From an uncultured Verrucomicrobiae bacterium (GTDB lineage Bacteria > Verrucomicrobiota > Verrucomicrobiia > Chthoniobacterales > UBA10450), in assembly GCA_963815455.1 (NCBI GenBank), contig CAWFGO010000003.1, forward strand, positions 733,782 to 797,781: a DNA stretch of 64,000 nt. Direction: 5' to 3'. Position 1 is the first letter of the stretch. Each line of letters opens with the position of its first letter. A model generated the notes under the pieces. That model saw nothing but the letters and a program-made list of their open reading frames with translations, did no database searches and had not been told where the DNA came from. Shown in pieces: positions 1-58,885 of this stretch. Both the position numbers and the translations under genes were made by a program.

Positions 1-1290
1 GCAGGGCTCGTCTGGCGCGCAAGGTGGCAGCCGAGTGTACTGAAATGTTCGGGTCAGACTTACCCGCGTTGTCTCCTCCCGAGAGTCCCAGTTCCCGGCA
101 ACGCTGGAGATGATGGTATTTCCGTCAAAGGTTTCCTCCCGTTTTATCACTCCATGTGGAACACTCGAGACCACTCCATTATGTGGATTCCTGATCGTTC
201 CGCTCTGATACCCGTACTGGATTCGTCGCATGGCCCCGCCTTGATGCCGCATGTCGTCGGCAGTCTTAAGAAGTGGCCATTCTCTTGGATTTGCTTGGCC
301 GTTGACCCACTCCGCGATGTTGTCTTCCCGATAAGTGTAGATAGCCGACGTGCCATCGCTGTAATGCACTTCGCTTAGCATCATCTTTTCGCGGCATCCG
401 AAAATGCATCCCCCGCCTGGATAGATCGGGCAATACTGATAGGTAACATTGTCGATTCGGTTCCCGCGGCCATCAAAAGCCTCCACTTTGATGAGCAAGC
501 GTGGATTCCAATAATCAGTGCTCCATGGGTTATCGACGTACGTAAATAGCAGAAACCGGCCCCCGGGTTCAGTGACTTTCCAAACTTTGCCATAGTTATC
601 ATAGTCGATTGTTGTGGTTTTTCCGAAAGGATCGGCAATAGCAACTGCACGATGACTGGCCGAATCAAAAATGACTGTCCCACCGTCGGCCATGCGAAAA
701 TGAGTAGCGTCCTCCCACTTTTCTGAAGTCCCTCGATCCCAGCCGCACGTGCCGAGCTCGGCACCGCTGGGCATGAAAACAATACCTGAAAAGTCTGGCC
801 GAGGCGCTTCGCCAAGCCACATGTACTCATGAGTCCAACCTGGACAGATGCGAGGCGACCCGTCCTCGGGCGTGGTTCGGCTGTTCCAGTAGCGAGTCAT
901 TTTAAGAGGATATGCGCCGATGCAGCCCGGCACGACAATGTCGTCGATCACGCGCTTGGCATTCCTGGAAAGAGGGTCGTAATTCCCCCCAGTGGTGATC
1001 TGCCCGTTGAAAATTCCGGCCACACCGGTGGGACTGTTCTGGCCAAAAGCAAGTTGGGGCGACCCTCCATCAGCAGGCGCTTCTTCCATGGGACCCTCCG
1101 GCTCCTCGGGTGCTTCTGTGCAGTTAGTCGCTACGACCTCTTCTTGCGCAAACATCCGCGGCGCAGGCATTGCAACCACGAGCGACCCAACCAGTGCGCT
1201 CAGCCAGAGCACTCGGGCAAGATTTTTCGTGCTGAAGTTAACACTCGCCGCGGCGAGCCCGATGCGGAGGCTTCGCGATATTGGAATCAC
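1..1290 (-). CDS. RHS/YD-repeat protein, N-terminal part (continues past the left edge; start codon uncertain)
   Basis: Not in the ORF track. Manual translation of the minus strand from GTG 1290 is open to base 1: signal-like hydrophobic stretch, then 'SPTGVAGIFNGQITTGGNYDPLSRNAKRVIDDIVVPGCIGAYPLKMTRYWNSR', then YD-like units 'DPFGKTTTIDYDNYGKVWKVTEPGGRFLLFTY' and 'VHYSDGTSAIYTY'. Confidence 0.8.
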   Translation of the reverse strand, partial: MIPISRSLRIGLAAASVNFSTKNLARVLWLSALVGSLVVAMPAPRMFAQEEVVATNCTEAPEEPEGPMEEAPADGGSPQLAFGQNSPTGVAGIFNGQITTGGNYDPLSRNAKRVIDDIVVPGCIGAYPLKMTRYWNSRTTPEDGSPRICPGWTHEYMWLGEAPRPDFSGIVFMPSGAELGTCGWDRGTSEKWEDATHFRMADGGTVIFDSASHRAVAIADPFGKTTTIDYDNYGKVWKVTEPGGRFLLFTYVDNPWSTDYWNPRLLIKVEAFDGRGNRIDNVTYQYCPIYPGGGCIFGCREKMMLSEVHYSDGTSAIYTYREDNIAEWVNGQANPREWPLLKTADDMRHQGGAMRRIQYGYQSGTIRNPHNGVVSSVPHGVIKREETFDGNTIISSVAGNWDSREETTRVSLTRTFQYTRLPPCAPDEPC

Positions 1291-50479: not shown

Positions 50480-50605
50480 GCAAAAAGGCAAGGGTGAATG
50501 GCAAAAAGGCAGAGTTTAACCGGAAAAGTGCAGGCCTGAATGGCAAAAAGGCAGGATTCTGGCGTAAAAAGGCAAGCTTCAAGCGAAAAAAGGCAGGCTT
50601 TTGAG
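50480..50605. repeat. Degenerate 21-bp tandem repeat, six units (core GCAAAAAGGCAG)
   Basis: Units start at 50480, 50501, 50522, 50543, 50564 and 50585. Confidence 0.8.
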
Positions 50606-50928
50606 GTCCAGGTGCAGGCCGGAACCTTCCAGGCCTGGGCCCAAGCCCCTCAAATTCAGAGCCCATCCGTTCAGCACAATGGCTAAGTCGTTCAGCCTCA
50701 ATCCTCTCAACCAAAAACGCTCAACCACTTCCTCTCCCTCAACACTCACTGCTCTCCTGTCATCCCGTCGCAGACTCGCCGTGGCGAGAGCGAAGTCGAA
50801 GGATCTCAGTCTATTTTTTTCCTCGCTCATCACAAACCGCTTCCGGAATCGCTGTAGCGGCGGTCTGCGACCGTCGAATATTTCTCAGTTCCTCGAATCC
50901 TTGCCTTCCGGTAACGGATTTGGCATAA

Positions 50929-51958
50929 ATGGCAATCGTGCCGCCGTCCACTGCCACCGTCGCTTCCTCGCCCAAGTTGCTCGACCGCGTTCGCTGGCAA
51001 CTGCGAGTAAAACACTACAGCATTCGTACGGAACAAGCCTACGTAGATTGGATCCGTCGTTACATTCTCTTTCATGGCAAACGCCATCCCGGTGAAATGG
51101 GAGAAGAACAAATCACTCAATTCCTTACCCATCTCGCGGTCGATAAGCACGTCGCAGCTTCCACCCAGAACCAGGCCTTTAGCGCGTTGCTGTTTCTCTA
51201 TCAGCAGGTGCTCGAACGAAAACTCGATTTTATTGATGATGTTCAGCGGGTTAAGCGACCGGCAAAGCTCCCGGTGGTGTTCACCCGGGCGGAAGCTCGC
51301 GATGTGCTTGGGCAACTCAAAGGGGAATACCGCCTGATGGGTGAACTATTGTACGGCGCCGGGCTGCGCCTGATGGAGTGTGTTCGATTGCGCGTCAAAG
51401 ACATCGACTTTGGTTACGGGCATATTCTTGTCCGCGATGGTAAAGGCTTGCGCGATCGCATTACCGTCCTGCCCGAGCGTCTGCGTCGCCCGCTCCAAGT
51501 GCATCTGGAGCGGATCCAGGAGAAGCACGACCGAGACCTGGCCAAGGGTCGCGGGCGGGTTTACCTCCCCTTTGCCCTGGAACGCAAGGTACCGCAACGC
51601 CAATCGTTCCTGGGTATGGCAATATGTATTTCCGGCCGATAAATTGTCGATCGACCCGCGTTCGGGAGAACTGCGTCGGCATCATGTGTTAGAAAAGAAT
51701 CTGCAAAAAGCGGTCAAGATTGCCATCGAGCGAGCGGCCATCAAGAAGGCGGGCAGCTGCCATACCTTTCGGCATAGTTTTGCTACGCATTTACTGGAAA
51801 ATGGCCAGGATATTCGTACTGTGCAGGCATTGCTCGGGCACAAAGACGTATCCACCACCATGATATATACCCATGTCCTAAATAAACCCGGATTGGGTGT
51901 GAGAAGCCCCTTGGACTACGATGCCCCTCCTATGGAAACCCAACCCCGCTCGAAATAG
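50929..51958 (+). CDS. intI: Integron integrase; one extra base near 51588
   Basis: [32 protein letters not shown], the IntI-specific insert [11 protein letters not shown]...[16 protein letters not shown] and [13 protein letters not shown]. Confidence 0.96.
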
Positions 51959-51990
51959 GTGAACAATTGTTCCTCTACTTCTCGTTAGGT
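51959..51990 (+). other. Putative attI / first crossover site (GTTAGGT at 51984-51990)
   Basis: GTTAGGTCTT is the exact complement of AAGACCTAAC at the end of cassette 1, and no attC left arm lies upstream. Confidence 0.65.
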
Positions 51991-51991
51991 C

Positions 51992-52369
51992 TTGAATCTC
52001 CTCGTTCCAGTTATCATTGGGATCGCCGTTGGGCTGCTATTTGCAGTGAGGCGCGGAGCGAAGGCCCGCGACATAGCGCGTTCGCTTTCGCCGGCAGACC
52101 GCCAGTTCATCGCCGATCAGATCGAGCCAATCACGAAGCTGCCACTCAACACAGCTGCAGACGAGGACGCTTGGTTAGCCGCTACACGAGCGGTGATGCA
52201 GCGTTTCAAGGAACGTTTCCCCGATGTTGCTTCGGTTGTGCCTGAGCAGGTATATCACTATTTCGACGATGCGGACATTCACCGGAAAGAGCCGTCATAT
52301 CGCGTTGCCCGCGAGGCACGCATTCTTGAGTTCATTAGATTACTTCGTGAAGAGCCCGCAAAGACCTAA
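51992..52369 (+). CDS. Cassette 1: membrane-anchored hypothetical protein
   Basis: Fills the cassette; its stop TAA lies in the attC1 inverse core. Confidence 0.8.
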   Translation: MNLLVPVIIGIAVGLLFAVRRGAKARDIARSLSPADRQFIADQIEPITKLPLNTAADEDAWLAATRAVMQRFKERFPDVASVVPEQVYHYFDDADIHRKEPSYRVAREARILEFIRLLREEPAKT

Positions 52370-52487
52370 CCAATCGCTCCAGCCAACCGCTGGCCGTTCT
52401 GATGAGTAGCTTTTCCATGACTTCAACATTAAACTCCGCGGCAAAGCTCGCTATCGCCAGCGGTGGCTGAGCTTTTTCTCGTTAGGT
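52364..52487 (+). other. attC1 (124 bp)
   Basis: ACCTAAC...GTTAGGT with paired arms CAGCCAACCGCTGGC / GCCAGCGGTGGCTG. Confidence 0.93.
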
Positions 52488-52489
52488 CT

Positions 52490-53032
52490 ATGCAAGCAAC
52501 ACTCTTCGTCACCCTCATCATCGCAGCACTGCTCAAGTACGCGTGCGCCCAAACCGTCGTGGGCGATGACAGATTGCCGCCGGACAGCATCGAGTTGAAG
52601 CGAAATGATCCGCCAGCGACATCCACACCTTGGCAGTTACCGAAGCCAGGCGATCCTCATTACGACGCCGCAAAAGAAGCGGAGATAAAGAGAGAAAACG
52701 AACACAAAGATAAAGCTGTTACCCATCATCTCGTGCGCACATACGAGCGTGGCGTATTCAAAGGTTATGACACGCTTCAGTGGGGGGAACCTGCAAAGAA
52801 GATGGATGACCCGTTCACTCCAAATCCCAAGCTGCCCCCGGACGCAGTCGAGATTTCCTCAGCCGCACATCCAGACAAATCAGACTACTTTCCCAGTCGT
52901 CCAGAGAAGCGCCCTTGGAACGTTCCAGATGACTTCATCGCTGTGCGAGTTTTTCACCGCGGCAAACTGATTGGTTGGACTTTCATGCCGAAGGACGCAG
53001 TAGCCATGTTGCACAAACCGAAGAAGACCTAA
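52490..53032 (+). CDS. Cassette 2: secreted hypothetical protein
   Basis: Signal peptide; stop codon lies in the attC2 inverse core. Confidence 0.8.
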   Translation: MQATLFVTLIIAALLKYACAQTVVGDDRLPPDSIELKRNDPPATSTPWQLPKPGDPHYDAAKEAEIKRENEHKDKAVTHHLVRTYERGVFKGYDTLQWGEPAKKMDDPFTPNPKLPPDAVEISSAAHPDKSDYFPSRPEKRPWNVPDDFIAVRVFHRGKLIGWTFMPKDAVAMLHKPKKT

Positions 53033-53150
53033 CCAATCAGTCGAGCTAACCGCCACCCGCTGTGCGATCCCTTTTTGATATGACCAGAACATCTTCACTT
53101 CGAGCACCGCTCGCCCTCGGTGGCGGTAGCTCACTTCTGTCTCGTTAGAC
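53027..53150 (+). other. attC2 (124 bp)
   Basis: ACCTAAC...GTTAGAC with arms GAGCTAACCGCCACC / GGTGGCGGTAGCTC. Confidence 0.93.
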
Positions 53151-53159
53151 GGATTAGCG

Positions 53160-53594
53160 ATGCGCTTCTCTAGCTTCACACTCTTCCTGACGGCCAGTCT
53201 AGCGTTTGGCACTGCATTGCGCGCGGGCGAGCCAGAGTGGCGTTTGACCAATCCAGCATACCTTTACCTTGAGGTTCACTATCAGGGCATCCCGGACAGC
53301 GCGCTTACTTGGCTCCAGCCGGCACGGAAGCGCGAGGGAGAATTTTGCGAAGCAATCGCACCAAATCAAACTGAGCCGGCGAAAGCGTTTAGTTTCTCAT
53401 TCCAGCGAGACACTCGGCAGGGTTACGAAGTAGTCTTCCGACCGATCGATCCCCAGTCACTGCTAGAGCATCACCCGGTCGACGGACCGGTTTCTACCGT
53501 TATTTTCCCGCGCTCGGAACGGAAACGTGTGCAAATAACGCCGAAGCTGTTTGTTGTTGGGTTTTACGGCGATCCGAAACTCGCGGGACATTGA
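53160..53594 (+). CDS. Cassette 3: secreted hypothetical protein
   Basis: Signal peptide (…TALRA|GE); fills the cassette. Confidence 0.8.
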   Translation: MRFSSFTLFLTASLAFGTALRAGEPEWRLTNPAYLYLEVHYQGIPDSALTWLQPARKREGEFCEAIAPNQTEPAKAFSFSFQRDTRQGYEVVFRPIDPQSLLEHHPVDGPVSTVIFPRSERKRVQITPKLFVVGFYGDPKLAGH

Positions 53595-53610
53595 CTGTGG
53601 AAGAAAATCC

Positions 53611-53715
53611 GTCTAACCAGGCGCTGCAGCCAACGGCGACCGCTCGTTTGCCACACTTTAGACCAATGAACATTTGCTCTCGCCCGCGCCGTGGCTGAGC
53701 TTGAGCTCGTTAGAT
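53611..53715 (+). other. attC3 (105 bp)
   Basis: GTCTAAC...GTTAGAT with arms CAGCCAACGGCG / CGCCGTGGCTG. Confidence 0.92.
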
Positions 53716-53725
53716 CTTATCGCTC

Positions 53726-54403
53726 ATGCTGCTTCCGGTGATCCTCGCCTCCGTATCAGCGATGTCGTATCCGCCCGAGGGCTACGCACGCGAAGAGAGC
53801 TTTGACGCGCCGAAGCACACTTTTAAGGTCGAAAGCTGGCGCAAAGGCGATCAGGATCCCGGTGCTGCTTTGTGCGTCTGGATTGTTACGCCCGACAAGA
53901 CCAAAGCAGAACTACTAGTTGCACCCGGTGTGCTTACTCCCCTTTATTCCGTTCAGATTCACATATCGCCCGACGAGCACTGGATACTCTGGGAGGAGAA
54001 GCTTTATCATCCCGCAGACGCCTTTGGACTTTTCGAAAGAGTATCAGGCATCCACTTCCATGAAGTGGGGCCGCCCATTTTTAGCGAGCAGGCGTGGCAG
54101 TTCATGGGCCGTCAGACCCATCACAACTTCAAACTGGAAGATACTGACCACATTATGCGTGTTAGCGAGTGGCCCACTCCCGGAACGCGAGTTCGTCACC
54201 TAGCGCTCTACGGCGATTCGCAGCTTACACCCGTCACTACTCCCAATGATCATTCCTTGGCTATCTCTTTGTACGGCGATGACGGGACGATTCACGTCGA
54301 TCTGTGGTTCTGTTTCTACGATCTCGTGAAGCATCGCTTCTACTTGAACTCAGCACTCGAGAACCATAACAAAGGGAGAATTGGCCGGTCTCGTGAAAGG
54401 TGA
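53726..54403 (+). CDS. Cassette 4: probable secreted hypothetical protein
   Basis: 225-aa ORF that fills the cassette. Confidence 0.8.
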   Translation: MLLPVILASVSAMSYPPEGYAREESFDAPKHTFKVESWRKGDQDPGAALCVWIVTPDKTKAELLVAPGVLTPLYSVQIHISPDEHWILWEEKLYHPADAFGLFERVSGIHFHEVGPPIFSEQAWQFMGRQTHHNFKLEDTDHIMRVSEWPTPGTRVRHLALYGDSQLTPVTTPNDHSLAISLYGDDGTIHVDLWFCFYDLVKHRFYLNSALENHNKGRIGRSRER

Positions 54404-54404
54404 G

Positions 54405-54528
54405 ATCTAACCATGCGATGGAGCGAACGGCGGACCGCGGTACGTCCACATTTTGAGATGACTTCCACCCTTCCACTCCGAGCGACACGCGCCCTCGTCC
54501 GCCGTCGCTCATCTTGTTCTCGTTAGGC
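54405..54528 (+). other. attC4 (124 bp)
   Basis: ATCTAAC...GTTAGGC; nearly identical to attC5 and attC7. Confidence 0.94.
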
Positions 54529-54530
54529 CC

Positions 54531-55057
54531 ATGACCGCGCTTCACGTCTCAAACTGCCGCCGTGGCAGCCGCGGAAGCCATCATGGCTGGCTGTCGTGAC
54601 CGTATGCGCCGGCACTGTCGTCTTTTGGGCGTCGCATCTTATTGTCCCCGCGGTGGTTTTCAGCGTCTTGGCTGGTTTATGTTTCCTCGGGCTTTCTCCT
54701 GAGCCGTGACAGATTCCACGGCGGCAGGCCCTCGCCGCGCAACAGCCGCGACGCGGTGTGCACCTTCGCTCGTTCATTCGAGTTCCGCCAGACCGACACT
54801 TTCATCATGCGCGCTGTGTATGAGGAGCTTCAGCCGGTTGTATCCTTTCCCATTCGAGCATCGCACCGACTCATCGAAGACTTGCAGTCGACGATGAGGA
54901 CCTGCACTTCGACTACCTTCCCTCGATCGCGGCGAGGGTTGGCCGAGCACCCACCCACACCGAACAGAATCCGTACAACGGCCGGGTGGAGACCGTGGCC
55001 GATCTGATCCATTTCATGGCCGCACAACCAACGCATGAGACCACGCAAATGGCCTAA
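54531..55057 (+). CDS. Cassette 5: membrane hypothetical protein with several frameshifts
   Basis: Fragments in different frames: TM segment, CTFARSFE.RQTDT.IMRAVYEELQ and NPYNGRVETVADLIHF; ends at TAA in attC5. Confidence 0.65.
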
Positions 55058-55175
55058 CCATGCGATGGAGCGAACGGCGGACCGCTGTACGCTCCACTTT
55101 TGAGATGACTTCCACCCTTCCACTCCGAGCGACGCACGCCCTCGTCCGCCGTCGCTCATCTTGTTCTCGTTAGGT
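55052..55175 (+). other. attC5 (124 bp)
   Basis: GCCTAAC...GTTAGGT. Confidence 0.94.
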
Positions 55176-55177
55176 CT

Positions 55178-55969
55178 ATGCGTGCGCTCTTGGCGATCCT
55201 TTTGTTTCTTCTGCTCGCGGGTTGCGGACAAAAAGCTAAAGAAGTGCCGCCTTTTCAAATCATCGCCACAGATTCCGGATTCGAAGCGCCGGGCGGACTG
55301 GCGGCCGGTATGCGACATATTATTTTTGAGAATCGCGGCTCAAAAATTCACGAGGCCATGCTCGTCCGGCTGGCCAAGGGAATGACTCCCGACGATTACC
55401 AAGCAGAATTGAAAAAGGGCGAACAGTTTCCGAAAGGTGCACTCGATTATTCCGGACCAGGCTCCACTTCGCCCGGGCGAACCGCCGAGATGTGGTTGAA
55501 GGTTGATCCCGGGAATTACGTGCTGATTTGCTGGAACCACCCCAAGACCGTCAAGCTTCATCCGTTCACCGTAGAAGACGCGGGCGCCATCGACGATCAA
55601 CCACCCCCGGAAGATGTGGTGTTAAAGCTGATTGATTATCGATTCGAGCTGAGCCGGCCTTTAGGCAAAGGAACCCAGGTGATTCGGGTAGAAACGCCGG
55701 GTCCATCGATGCATGAGCTCGATTTCTTTCGCCTCCATGACGGTCAAACCGCGGCAGATGTGCATCGCTGGTCCAAGGGAAAGGACACCGACCAGGCACC
55801 CTTCGAGGCGCTCGGTGGCGCACTCGATAATCACGACATTACGCGCGTGGTCTGGCTGAGAAAGGAATTCACCCCGGGCCGCTACGTGTTGCATTGCGAA
55901 ATGCCGGTTGCCAACACCAAGCTCAGACACGACGACCTGGGGATGATACAGGAGATCGAGGTCAGATGA
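55178..55969 (+). CDS. Cassette 6: lipoprotein with two cupredoxin-like repeats
   Basis: Lipobox LAGC; repeats H.....PGNYVLICWNH and MHE....PGRYVLHCEMP...HDDLGM. Confidence 0.75.
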   Translation: MRALLAILLFLLLAGCGQKAKEVPPFQIIATDSGFEAPGGLAAGMRHIIFENRGSKIHEAMLVRLAKGMTPDDYQAELKKGEQFPKGALDYSGPGSTSPGRTAEMWLKVDPGNYVLICWNHPKTVKLHPFTVEDAGAIDDQPPPEDVVLKLIDYRFELSRPLGKGTQVIRVETPGPSMHELDFFRLHDGQTAADVHRWSKGKDTDQAPFEALGGALDNHDITRVVWLRKEFTPGRYVLHCEMPVANTKLRHDDLGMIQEIEVR

Positions 55970-55979
55970 ACACCAAAAG

Positions 55980-56102
55980 ACCTAACCACGCGCTGGAGCG
56001 AACCGGCAGCTGGCGCGAAGCTTAGTTTCAGATGATTAGAACAGTGATATTACAAGCAAAGCTCGGCGACGCTGCCGGTCGCTCAGCTTTGTCTCGTTAG
56101 GT
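55980..56102 (+). other. attC6 (123 bp)
   Basis: ACCTAAC...GTTAGGT with arms GAGCGAACCGGCAGC / GCTGCCGGTCGCTC. Confidence 0.93.
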
Positions 56103-56108
56103 GTCTCC

Positions 56109-56411
56109 GTGAGCGCCGCACCAAATAACGATGGCTTCACGAGTGCGGCGATCGTTTCTTTCTTCATTCTCATGCTGCTCGTAAATTGCATTTGGCTGCT
56201 ACTGAGACAGGAGCGGCTGGCGAATGGCGGCAGGTGGTTCACATGGGACGAACTTCGTGATTTCAAGCAACTGGTTGCACGACAAACCGATCCTTCGAAG
56301 CGCAAGGCTTATATGATTATGCGTTACCTCCTTCTCGTTTGTATTGCGCTTATGTTTGTTATTCCCATACTACTCCTTGGCATAGGCTATATATGGTTTC
56401 ACCTGCATTGA
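56109..56411 (+). CDS. Cassette 7: small two-TM membrane protein
   Basis: Fills the cassette. Confidence 0.75.
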   Translation: MSAAPNNDGFTSAAIVSFFILMLLVNCIWLLLRQERLANGGRWFTWDELRDFKQLVARQTDPSKRKAYMIMRYLLLVCIALMFVIPILLLGIGYIWFHLH

Positions 56412-56537
56412 GATTGATCGCCGAACATCTAACCATGCGATGGAGCGCCTATGAGGGTTGTCAACCGTGGAACGGGTATTGTTTGTTTTTCTTTAGTTTT
56501 TTCCTTTCCCGGTTTTTCCAATCTTTAGTGGTTTGAT

Positions 56538-56740
56538 CCGCAGGGTGCAGCTTCCCTCTGTCGTGTTGTCTCGCCGGGGCGAGTCAACAGCTCCTATTCG
56601 AGCATCGCTTTTGTTGTGCGAGCCCATGATGTCGTGCCTGACTTTGGGAAGCCGCTTTGGGCGGAACGCGCCCCATCTAAGCGATGATCCCTTCGTTTCA
56701 AAGGACCAGCTCCAGCGCCGAGCAGCGTTCCACCCTGCGG
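56538..56740 (-). ncRNA. Predicted bridge/seek RNA of the IS1111 element
   Basis: 10-bp closing stem CCGCAGGGTG/CACCCTGCGG. An internal loop carries GCGCTGGAGC (attC match); ATAGGAG matches the predicted circle junction. Folded by eye. Confidence 0.7.
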
Positions 56741-56799
56741 CCAAATCAAACTTTGCTTGGAAGTTCCGTTTCGTAAAAGCTGAGGGTTAAATCTGTTTG

Positions 56800-57921
56800 T
56801 TAGGGTTTCACCTGGGATGTAGACAGGCTCCAGCCCAGTTCGGCGGCACTGGCCCGGCCGGTTCGCCAGCGCCAGATGTCTATGGCGAGTTGCCGGGCCA
56901 GGGCCACTGCGATTTTCTTTTTCAGCGAGGCGCCGTGCCTTAATTTCTCCAGATATTTCTGACGAGCATGCCAATTAGGCTGCCAGCGAAGAAGTCGCCA
57001 GACCGCCTCGACCAGGAGCGTGCGCAAATGTTTGTTGCCGTGCCGGTCGATGCTTCCAAAACGCTGGATCCCGGCTGAACTGTATTCGCTAGGACAACAC
57101 CCAGTGTAACTGCCCACGGCTTTGCGATGCTTGAAGCGTTGCCAATCGCACACCTCCCCGTCGATCAGCGATACCGTTAGCGCACCCAATCCCGTCGGGA
57201 TTTTTTCTTCCCTCACCAGCGCTTCAATCTCCTGGGTCAACCGATCCAATTGCGCTTTGGCCGCTCGGATCTGTTCCATGACCGGTTCAAGCTGCCCGCG
57301 CACAAACTCGCTGCACTGCGGCCCGATTCGTTTCCACTTCCGCGGTCCGCCCCACCCAGCCTCCAGCGTCTCATGCTCGTGCTCGATCCGCAGCGCACGC
57401 CCGTGATTCTCCAGCCGCCGCACTTGGCGTTTCCAAAACTCCCGCTGCCGCCCCAGCTCCCGCCGTTGTTGCTCCGCCCGGCTCGGGATTCGGATTGGTC
57501 TTAATTCCTCTCTCTGCCCATCCAGGTAACGGCTCAATCGCACACACAACTCGCGCGCATCCATCCGGTCGTTCTTCCGCCGCCGCTCCAAATTTAATCG
57601 CATCGGGGTCGTCCCGACGCTCTTTGCTCCCGCTTGAGTTAATTGCTCGTGCAACGTGTACCCAAATCCGCAGCATTCCCACACCGCGTAGACCACATCG
57701 CCTACACCCACTTTTTGCTTCACCCACTCGAGCAACTGCTCGCGAGTATACTTCCGCGCCGGCCCAATCGTTCCCCGCCCACACTGGATCGCCACCACCA
57801 TAAAACGCAGGTCCACGTCCAGCCCAAGCTTCCACACCCGCCTCACTGCCCCATTGCCAGGGGCGCTTGAATTGTTAAACTTCTCTCCGCCATGAAGGGT
57901 TGTTGTTGTTTTGTTTTTCAT
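56800..57921 (-). CDS. IS110-family DEDD transposase/recombinase
   Basis: LGLDVD, ECCGFG, KNDRMDA and YTGCCPSEYSSAG...GNKHLRTLLVEA. Confidence 0.95.
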   Translation of the reverse strand: MKNKTTTTLHGGEKFNNSSAPGNGAVRRVWKLGLDVDLRFMVVAIQCGRGTIGPARKYTREQLLEWVKQKVGVGDVVYAVWECCGFGYTLHEQLTQAGAKSVGTTPMRLNLERRRKNDRMDARELCVRLSRYLDGQREELRPIRIPSRAEQQRRELGRQREFWKRQVRRLENHGRALRIEHEHETLEAGWGGPRKWKRIGPQCSEFVRGQLEPVMEQIRAAKAQLDRLTQEIEALVREEKIPTGLGALTVSLIDGEVCDWQRFKHRKAVGSYTGCCPSEYSSAGIQRFGSIDRHGNKHLRTLLVEAVWRLLRWQPNWHARQKYLEKLRHGASLKKKIAVALARQLAIDIWRWRTGRASAAELGWSLSTSQVKP

Positions 57922-58078
57922 ACAACGCGTGTGCCCGTTTTGCCCACGCTTTTCAACCCTTCATGGCATCTAACGGCGGACCGTTGTACGCTCCACTCTT
58001 GATATGACTTCCACACTTCAACTCCGAGCGCCGCGCCCCCTCCTCCGCCGTCGCTCATCTTGTTCTCGTTAGATCTCG

Positions 58079-58390
58079 ATGCGCCTTCCCAGATTTCGAT
58101 ACGTCATTCTGCTGGCGATTATTGTCGGTGCAGTTTTGCCGGTGCTTATCATGGTCGGACTTTGGCTGCACATTTTTAGCTTCGCTGGAGAGCGACTGTT
58201 CTACTTTTGGCCTAGTTCGGTCCTGCTGATGGCCATGGAGCCGGGTCACACGGCTCAGGTTTTCAGCGTGCTTGGCTTGAGCATTGCGATCAATGTTTTG
58301 CTGTATCTCGTTGTCCTTACAGTGTTCTGGAGCTTCTGGTGGATTTTCCATCGATGGCGCGCTTCGTTGCGTGATGGAACAACGATCTAA
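58079..58390 (+). CDS. Cassette 8: small membrane protein
   Basis: Hydrophobic ORF; its stop lies in the attC8 inverse core. Confidence 0.78.
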   Translation: MRLPRFRYVILLAIIVGAVLPVLIMVGLWLHIFSFAGERLFYFWPSSVLLMAMEPGHTAQVFSVLGLSIAINVLLYLVVLTVFWSFWWIFHRWRASLRDGTTI

Positions 58391-58509
58391 CCAATCAGTC
58401 GAGCTAACCGCCACCCGCCGTACGCTCCGCGCGACAACATGACTACTGACCACCGACTACGGACCACGCTCGCTCTCGGCGGCGGTCGCTCAGCTTGTTC
58501 TCGTTAGAT
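58385..58509 (+). other. attC8 (125 bp)
   Basis: ATCTAAC...GTTAGAT; the left arm is nearly identical to attC2. Confidence 0.93.
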
Positions 58510-58510
58510 A

Positions 58511-58885
58511 TTGAACCCCGCGGACTCGGGTAAACGCCCGTTTGTGGGAGGTCAGCCGACGTCCTTACCGTGCCGCTTTGGTTCGGCCCAAATAGAAGGC
58601 GATCGAAGCTGGGATCCCAATGAATACGACAAGAAAACCGATTACGAGCATATGTTCACATTTAGCACCAATCGTGCCTTTGTTACAACTGTGTTACAGT
58701 TGTGTGACGATCATGTAAACAAAAATCGTCGATTAAGTGAAGATTTTTCGGCCGCGTCCGAAAACGGCTGGCCCAGCCATCCGATAACGGATTCAACCCA
58801 ACAACCTAGCCAACAAGGTAAGAGGAAACACGGGGCCAGCTCCGAAAGTGTTCGCTCCGCCACGATGGTATCCCCGCCTGAATAA
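58511..58885 (+). CDS. Possible terminal cassette remnant with no attC
   Basis: TTG start 1 nt after the last core; weak coding character. Confidence 0.3.
   Translation: MNPADSGKRPFVGGQPTSLPCRFGSAQIEGDRSWDPNEYDKKTDYEHMFTFSTNRAFVTTVLQLCDDHVNKNRRLSEDFSAASENGWPSHPITDSTQQPSQQGKRKHGASSESVRSATMVSPPE

Follow-up and report, generated by a model that had tools for sequence, protein, structure and literature searches.

The 64,000-nt stretch of DNA analysed here, from an uncultured Verrucomicrobiae bacterium (contig CAWFGO010000003.1, positions 733,782 to 797,781; hereafter the window), carries an integron with an array of eight gene cassettes, which lie downstream of the attI site on the same strand as the integrase gene intI and are each closed by an attC recombination site of about 120 nt (yCTAAC ... 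CTCGTTAGry). Every one of these attC sites was found to contain a short open reading frame (ORF), hereafter the mini-ORF, which starts with ATG in the variable centre of the site and runs toward the TAG of the GTTAG core. Comparison with the wider attC family supported the view that the mini-ORF is a selected feature and does not reflect shared ancestry alone. Judged from the sequences, it probably serves as a relay, in which its translation would melt the attC hairpin and hand ribosomes to, or expose, the start of the next cassette.

A short open reading frame in an attC family

All attC sites of the window lie on the plus strand. The mini-ORF of attC1 (52364..52487) occupies 52417-52470 (17 amino acids) and stops at TGA 52468, and that of attC3, a short form of the site (53611..53715), occupies 53666-53698 (10 amino acids) and stops at TGA 53696. 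The other six encode 22 amino acids and end at the core TAG: 53080-53148 in attC2 (53027..53150; TAG 53146), 54458-54526 in attC4 (54405..54528; TAG 54524), 55105-55173 in attC5 (55052..55175; TAG 55171), 56032-56100 in attC6 (55980..56102; TAG 56098), 58004-58072 in attC7 (TAG 58070), and 58439-58507 in attC8 (58385..58509; TAG 58505). In attC7, the 5' arm (R'' and the start of L'', 56427..56447) is severed from the remainder (57972..58074) by an insertion sequence of the IS110 family, a feature absent from the initial annotation of this DNA. That annotation had reported ATGA in all eight sites (at 52417, 53080, 53666, 54458, 55105, 56032, 58004, and 58439), a distance of 66 nt from this ATG to the TAG of CGTTAG in seven sites and of 45 nt in attC3 (core TAG 53711), six 22-codon ORFs ending at the core TAG, and in-frame TGA codons 15 nt earlier in attC1 and attC3. 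All of these coordinates held on re-checking, and the quoted peptides were reproduced exactly.

The elements are true attC sites: they have the core sites, the L''/L' stem, and the spacing by single promoterless ORFs near intI. The inverted core sites R'' (RYYYAAC) and R' (GTTRRRY) were present as yCTAAC ... GTTAGry in 8/8 sites of the window. An alignment of 38 family members, drawn from the window and from eight further genomes, gave a consensus fold in which an unpaired spacer separates an R box of 6 bp from an L stem of 17 bp that carries two single-base bulges on the 5' arm. Compensatory changes were seen in 13 of the 23 conserved pairs, and the centre was unpaired and variable. The predicted minimum free energies of the attC RNAs ranged from -36 to -56.5 kcal/mol, with z-scores of -1.2 to -5.0. 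Bases around and downstream of the ATG were predicted to be unpaired with a mean probability of 0.5-0.85; for the 3' arm this value was 0.0-0.2 and for the core 0.1-0.25. Comparison with Rfam yielded nothing relevant.

To follow the mini-ORF beyond the window, a hidden Markov model was built from the window's attC sites. It gave 81 matches in the genome of the window and 91 more in 13 of 50 loci around relatives of its integrase, all of which belong to Verrucomicrobiota metagenome-assembled genomes (MAGs). Matches that reached the 3' end of the model with a recognisable core were kept and duplicates were removed, which left 151 unique sites, of which the window's genome supplied 73 and 12 other MAG loci of Chthoniobacterales or Candidatus Udaeobacter the remaining 78. 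The sites were anchored on the T-R-R codon of the core, and the ATG was not a selection criterion; distances (d) are given in nt upstream of the core TAG. This TAG was present in 148/151 sites; of the three sites without it, one (TGG) had been mis-anchored. An in-frame ATG ORF was defined as an ATG 36-90 nt upstream in the frame of the core stop, with the frame open to the TAG or to a TGA at -15.

Such an ORF was found in 125 of the 151 sites, and the other two frames gave 1 and 10. Both sources contributed, with 64/73 in the window's genome and 61/78 in the 12 other loci. The core TAG terminates 95 of the 125 mini-ORFs, and a TGA 15 nt before it terminates the other 30. When the centres were shuffled (200 shuffles), 13.2 ± 3.2 of 109 sites retained such an ORF by chance, with a maximum of 24, while 92/109 were observed; this test was run on an earlier version of the collection, in which 109 of 144 sites had enough stored flank. 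The same asymmetry appeared in the stop triplets. Within the variable centre (d=62..34), one stop lay in frame and 60 and 52 lay out of frame, and over triplets starting at d=62..18 the counts by frame were 2 / 94 / 57, one of the two in-frame cases being a mis-anchored site. Stops occurred at 8 of the 10 possible centre positions in each out-of-frame register and at 1 of the 10 in frame.

In order to reduce the effect of kinship, the central regions were clustered by single linkage and each cluster was represented by one site. At 60% identity, which gave 44 clusters, the numbers of sites with a stop were 1 / 17 / 16 (binomial P = 1.9e-5) and those of ATG ORFs 27 / 1 / 6; at 50% identity (27 clusters), the respective values were 1 / 10 / 11 and 15 / 1 / 5. 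The bottom strand, which likewise ends in GTTAG and has equal composition and symmetry, provided a matched control; in 135 sites it gave no frame signal, either in ATG ORFs (21 / 28 / 18) or in stops (93 / 74 / 52). The depletion of stops was thus confined to the mini-ORF frame and to the top strand.

The start codon itself was conserved far above its surroundings. An ATG was present at d=66 in 81 of the 151 sites and a displaced in-frame ATG in most of the others, in flanks with an entropy of 1.2-1.9 bits per column. The distances between ATG and TAG were 39, 45, 48, 57, 60, 63, 66, 69, 72, 75, 78, and 81 nt, all multiples of 3, and ATGs away from d=66 fell 62 / 13 / 16 by frame, so that neither of the two outcomes named beforehand as evidence against the reading, an ATG conserved no better than its surroundings and frame-random displacement, was seen. 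In one subfamily, the ATG at d=66 had been lost through a 1-nt shift (TTTGAGTAGCTAG...) and a new in-frame ATG stands at d=48; another carries the ATG one codon further downstream (TTTATGAAACAG); and a third has its 3' arm in a different register, with a 1-nt insertion before the core that restores the frame. Besides the ATG, the 81 sites that have it at d=66 also conserve A at +4 (95%) and TTT at d=72-70.

The peptide appeared to be free to vary. Peptides were almost wholly different between subfamilies, their lengths ranged from 10 to 27 codons, and the second half of the mini-ORF is the L' arm, which covaries with L''. For codons 2-11 of the 81 sites, the entropies by codon position were 1.27 / 1.36 / 1.32; because there is no excess at the wobble position, the act of translation rather than the peptide seems to be under constraint. 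Since stops are depleted in frame, distances are multiples of 3, and the peptide is not conserved, the frame is kept translatable. It is well supported, at the level of sequence, that what selection retains is the initiating ATG, its frame, and freedom from stops, and not the peptide.

Related elements were found further afield. A covariance model of the attC family had matches in 12 of 151 Verrucomicrobiota genomes across the phylum, the window's own included. A further genome with the same family (G048) carried the mini-ORF in 7 of 10 unique sites. In five distant genomes (G081, G123, G005, G024, and G066), the attC core is GTTCGsC, without the TAG, and in these families an A-rich leader such as CAAAGAAATG precedes the next ATG. 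Elements resembling attC with the cores GCGAACA ... CGTTCGsC were seen at loci L053, L065, L071, L076, and L080 (G081), L060, L067, and L072 (G123), L055 and L066 (G005), L058, and L062; they are either 67 nt long, with a tiny loop, or about 135 nt long. Among the GTTCG-core elements of at least 132 nt, 10/14 had an ATG at position 51-58 that opens a frame of 17-30 codons, a count that comes from four genomes, includes five near-identical copies, was made without a frame control, and is to be taken as a lead and not as a test. Nine of these ten frames end in the 3' arm at TGA or TAG, and one ends at a TGA overlapping the ATG of the next gene. Termination at the core TAG is not what is most deeply conserved, given that 30 of the 125 mini-ORFs end earlier and that the GTTCG-core families keep an ORF of 17-21 codons. 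These comparisons suggest that the deeper property may be an ORF running from the apex through the L' arm, of which the ending at the core TAG would be a refinement of the Udaeobacter type. Outside Verrucomicrobiota, our own hairpin-based attC finder returned 1-4 sites per proteobacterial or desulfobacterial locus, too few for a frame test.

A possible ribosome relay and its alternatives

The relay that we propose would operate as follows. The array would be transcribed as a polycistron, and each attC would fold into an RNA hairpin of -36 to -56 kcal/mol, with the next start codon 0-12 nt from its foot. A ribosome would bind the open, U-rich apex and initiate at the AUG without Shine-Dalgarno (SD) pairing, unwind the 3' arm (L' box), and terminate at the UAG of the GUUAG core, contributed by the neighbouring cassette, or at the UGA 15 nt before it. 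Termination beside the next start would then lead to re-initiation by the same ribosome, or at least to exposure of that codon, and translation of the mini-ORF would close the untranslated gap between cassettes. The crossover point in attC is G|TT, and because of this the stop of the mini-ORF would be supplied by the TTAG of the next cassette. What was observed is the reading frame and its conservation, a signature of selection specific to frame and strand, a hairpin predicted for the RNA, and the nearness of the next start; from these we infer that the mini-ORF is translated and that its translation raises expression of the downstream cassette. In the overall interpretation given by the initial annotation, selection for an open, ATG-started frame was upheld, the relay was judged plausible, and the idea of an internal -10 element was rejected.

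The next ORF was indeed close by at most junctions. Within the window, where a start 3-12 nt after the core TAG had been claimed, gaps of 4, 11, 12, 4, 8, 6, and 3 nt were obtained for ORFs of at least 50 codons, and no such ORF was found near attC4, whose following cassette is apparently broken. Family-wide, the next ORF started 0-6 nt after the TAG in 74/145 cases and 0-12 nt after it in 93/145; TAGATG occurred 20 times and TAG-ryyy-ATG was common, and TAGGTCTATG and TAGATG exemplify natural cassette starts after the core.

The translation context of the genome was assessed as well. Its 16S rRNA has a normal tail, CCUCCUUU, with the canonical anti-SD sequence. A 4-mer SD core at -18..-4 preceded 11.6% of 535 unambiguous ATG starts, as compared with 8.4% in a control window, which suggests that initiation in this genome is mostly SD-independent; A stands at +4 in 41% of its starts. 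The argument that the next gene has no room for a ribosome-binding site of its own is consequently moot, as the genome hardly uses SD sequences and the mini-ORF has none either, and occlusion by the hairpin is the better argument.

Several further routes to expression of the cassettes were considered and rejected. The hexamer TACGCT/TACGTC, proposed as an internal -10 element, found no backing: TAnnnT was present at that place in 8 of 81 sites, and a promoter scan of 50500-58700 gave 4 sites against 4.1 expected, none of them within an attC. Read-through of the TAG fusing the mini-ORF to the next gene was dismissed, as TAG closes 516 of 1,872 long open frames and the gaps show no consistent frame. 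That the ATGA is coupled to the upstream cassette ORF was rejected as the general rule, since most of these ORFs stop no later than R'' (peaks at d=115-116), with 3/132 ending at d=65 and 6 at d=70.

Some observations weigh against the relay. The mini-ORF ATG is preceded by no Shine-Dalgarno sequence and no GGAG, the upstream consensus being TTTnnn, and the start codon itself is predicted to be partly paired, with unpaired probabilities of 0.34 for the U and 0.17 for the G of the AUG. The mini-ORF is missing from 26 of the 151 sites, and the fact that 30 of 125 end 15 nt before the core means that abutting the next start is not strictly required. The gap of at most 6 nt, seen at 65 of 116 sites with a mini-ORF and at 8 of 21 without one, is a weak link, and the downstream start was taken as the most upstream ATG, GTG, or TTG of an ORF of at least 50 codons, a rule that biases gaps downwards. 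In addition, all sequences used are MAGs or draft assemblies.

The early termination just mentioned would also fit an explanation in which the mini-ORF is translated and the benefit is confined to the transcript, the attC being shielded from Rho-dependent termination or nucleases with no hand-over of ribosomes. It would accord as well with the distant families, where the ORF stops 19-30 nt short of the element's end and the next ATG follows an A-rich leader, and with class 1 integrons, in which the translation rate of the upstream cassette and untranslated stretches alter downstream mRNA levels, as stated in PMC11511950. The exact ending of 95/125 mini-ORFs at the core TAG, the location of half of the next ORFs within 6 nt, and the 20 instances of TAGATG, however, present the geometry of termination-reinitiation, and we regard the purely transcript-level explanation as rather unlikely; it and the relay are not mutually exclusive. 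A functional micropeptide of about 22 amino acids, a small membrane or regulatory one produced from every cassette junction, would account for the open, ATG-started frame and for the hydrophobic middle of many versions (LALGGG, FAMLALASG). Such a peptide is hard to reconcile with the lack of a third-position excess of variation in the variable half, the almost complete difference of the peptides between subfamilies, their lengths of 10 to 27 codons, and a C-terminal half set by the L' stem that covaries with L'', and it is accordingly given very little credence.

Two further explanations were weighed. The conserved TTT at d=72-70 and the A at +4, which at 95% exceeds the 41% of the genome's start context, could mark TTT...ATGA as a DNA or structural signal, recognised for instance by the integrase or by some host factor when the bottom strand is folded, with the ORF as a by-product. 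This appears highly improbable, as a signal of that kind cannot explain why a single frame avoids stops throughout a stretch of about 45 nt that is otherwise nearly saturated; moreover, displaced ATGs keep to the frame (62 / 13 / 16), and the recombinogenic bottom strand is without a frame signal. Neutral inheritance, in which the sites would be recent copies of one template with a chance open frame, draws on the many close copies (the 151 sites form 67 clusters at 70% identity) and on the homogeneity that attC sites show within one chromosomal integron lineage. The central columns nevertheless have an entropy of 1.2-1.9 bits and hold stops at 16 of 20 out-of-frame positions as against 1 of 10 in frame, and the signal survives in the 27 clusters at 50% identity and recurs in attC families of the phylum with a different core, which leaves this explanation next to no probability.

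Reaching beyond the window's family, the relay might be an old, selected, and SD-independent device in the long-centred attC sites of the whole bacterial class, persisting where the core has changed from GTTAG to GTTCG; this extension is put forward tentatively and is, in our estimation, open to considerable doubt.

The integron locus and the insertion sequence in attC7

The window belongs to a 3.6-Mb genome in 7 contigs, and its IntI is 82-89% identical to the IntI of Candidatus Udaeobacter and Chthoniobacterales MAGs (Verrucomicrobiota). The integron integrase gene intI (50929..51958, plus strand) is frameshifted into the ORFs 50929-51642 and 51380-51958, with Phage_int_SAM_4 and Phage_integrase domains in both pieces. 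It is followed by the end of attI (51959..51990, plus strand) with the core GTTAGGT at 51984-51990. The cassette ORFs after each core lie within 51992..58885 on the plus strand, at 51992-52369, 52490-53032, 53160-53594, 53726-54403, 55178-55969, 56109-56411, 58079-58390, and 58511-58885, and a Pfam search of the window's cassette ORFs matched no family for any of them. Cassette 5 (54527-55175) has an ATG 4 nt after the core (54531) that opens a short frame only; its longest ORF, a fragment at 54642-55007 on the plus strand with a TTG start, begins 115 nt in, and the cassette is probably a decayed gene.

The layout in which intI lies upstream of, and on the same strand as, its cassettes, known as the inverted integrase arrangement, was seen in the window (50929-51990) and in most related MAG loci; attC matches lay on the plus strand downstream of intI in L002, L006, L007, L009, L010, L015, L016, and L019. 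In such co-directional integrons (window 51956-51995, L003, L027, L001, L004, L016, L019, and L050), the intI stop stands 10-30 nt before the attI core, and the integrase ORF ends about 15-35 nt from the start of the first cassette. A start codon right after the intI stop, GTG in the window and ATG in L003 and L027, opens a 9-codon frame to the TAG of the attI core. A coupling ORF at attI resembling the ORF-11 of class 1 integrons was considered and rejected, the distance from intI stop to core being in frame at 4 of 12 co-directional junctions, as expected by chance.

The whole genome holds at least four intI copies besides its 81 attC matches. At least three of these are further copies or fragments, at C1:1495238-1496248 (minus strand), C1:1718417-1719418 (plus strand), and C2:707901-708404 (plus strand), one of them divergent from its array; the mini-ORF is carried both beside co-directional intI and in the array divergent from intI at C1:1718417. 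The attC matches span at least 12 loci on contigs C1, C2, C3, C5, and C6, and many are far from any intI, forming attC clusters without an integrase. The last attC of the window with its 3' flank (58505-58530, TAGATATTGAACCCCGCGG) is repeated identically at C6:21016 and C2:712662, which suggests a shared terminal cassette or array end. In addition, a TAA(A)GCG-like motif follows the core by 5-9 nt in a subset of cassettes (GTTAGryNN-TAAGCGCG / CTAAAGC), as at C1:1488051 and C1:1715748 in the genome and at L009:13376, L010:13433, and L015:14194.

The insertion sequence inside attC7 (56448..57971, minus strand; 1,524 bp) encodes a transposase at 56803-57921 on the minus strand, with a Transposase_20 match (1.6e-15) and a weak DEDD_Tnp_IS110 match. 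The genome contains five copies that are 97-100% identical, the others being at C1:1710973-1712495, C1:1489061-1490585, C2:711033-712556, and C6:21551-23064. All copies interrupt an attC at one and the same position, between GAGCG/T of L'' and AAC, with the transposase antisense to the cassettes, and the right-end junction inside attC is identical in each copy and in another genome (L009:13376). The element appears to resemble the attC-targeting IS1111-attC group.

Comparison with known systems and significance

The principle behind the proposed relay is already in print. Short ORFs in class 1 attC sites are reported to act by termination-reinitiation and so to help ribosomes past the stem-loop (Jacquier et al. 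2009, Mol Microbiol 72:1475, as described in section 3.2 of PMC8876359); PMC11511950 puts the cases of such attC-internal ORFs in class 1 integrons as few and calls them 'anecdotal', and states that an untranslated stretch before attC lowered downstream expression 4-fold. For the ORF-11 of attI1, described by Hanau-Bercot et al. 2002, the stop falls on core positions 3-5 (GTTRRRY) and the mode of action is translational coupling (both according to section 3.1 of PMC8876359 and to PMC4670013).

In its anatomy, the mini-ORF fits the attC-internal type. It shares with the ORFs of Jacquier et al. a position in attC on the transcribed strand and a predicted stable stem-loop before the next start. 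It differs in being conserved across an attC family of chromosomal integrons and attC clusters, in bearing a selection signature, and in lacking a Shine-Dalgarno sequence. Likewise, ORF-11 is a small ORF over a recombination site whose stop, brought in by the inserted cassette, is the TAG at positions 3-5 of GTTRRRY, as in 95 of the 125 mini-ORFs; its peptide sequence matters little and it serves cassettes without an initiation region of their own. ORF-11, however, lies in attI, serves the first cassette only, has GGAG 8 bp upstream, and comprises 11 codons, whereas the mini-ORF lies in attC, comprises 10-27 codons, has no SD, and starts in the hairpin apex, and is thus not a member of the ORF-11 type. 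Leader-peptide attenuation, as in the cmlA cassette, ermC, and cat (section 3.4 of PMC8876359), resembles the proposed relay in that translation of an upstream ORF remodels a hairpin masking a start. Attenuation of this kind differs by sensing a drug through stalling, by alternative hairpins, and by a conserved stalling peptide; neither of the latter two was seen here, the attC fold alignment showing no alternative pairing of the kind that attenuators need.

Searches of the literature on integrons of Udaeobacter and Verrucomicrobia and on attC termination-reinitiation yielded neither an account of this family nor one of conserved attC ORFs in chromosomal integrons. What is new is that the ORF forms a conserved part of an entire attC family, in a phylum whose integrons have barely been described, together with a comparative signature of selection for translatability and, if the mini-ORF is functional, a mode of working free of SD sequences.

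It is commonly assumed that cassette expression falls with distance from the cassette promoter Pc and that translation is impeded by attC hairpins, and ORFs of this small size inside attC have so far passed for rare curiosities. Here the comparative signature of a translated frame marks a family of 151 sites from the window's genome and 12 other genomes of soil Verrucomicrobiota, and more distant families echo it. Frame-specific depletion of stops in attC would offer a simple criterion that can be applied to all integron collections, and the natural variants with a lost ATG or a shifted frame constitute a clean, testable system. Should the feature prove general in other phyla, the 'variable terminal structure' seen in long attC sites would acquire a function. 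In this clade at least, our results suggest that the recombination site doubles as a translation device, so that a captured gene may be expressed wherever it is inserted. If this is true, the means of translation would come with each junction, and chromosomal arrays of great length could be expressed whatever the order of their genes.

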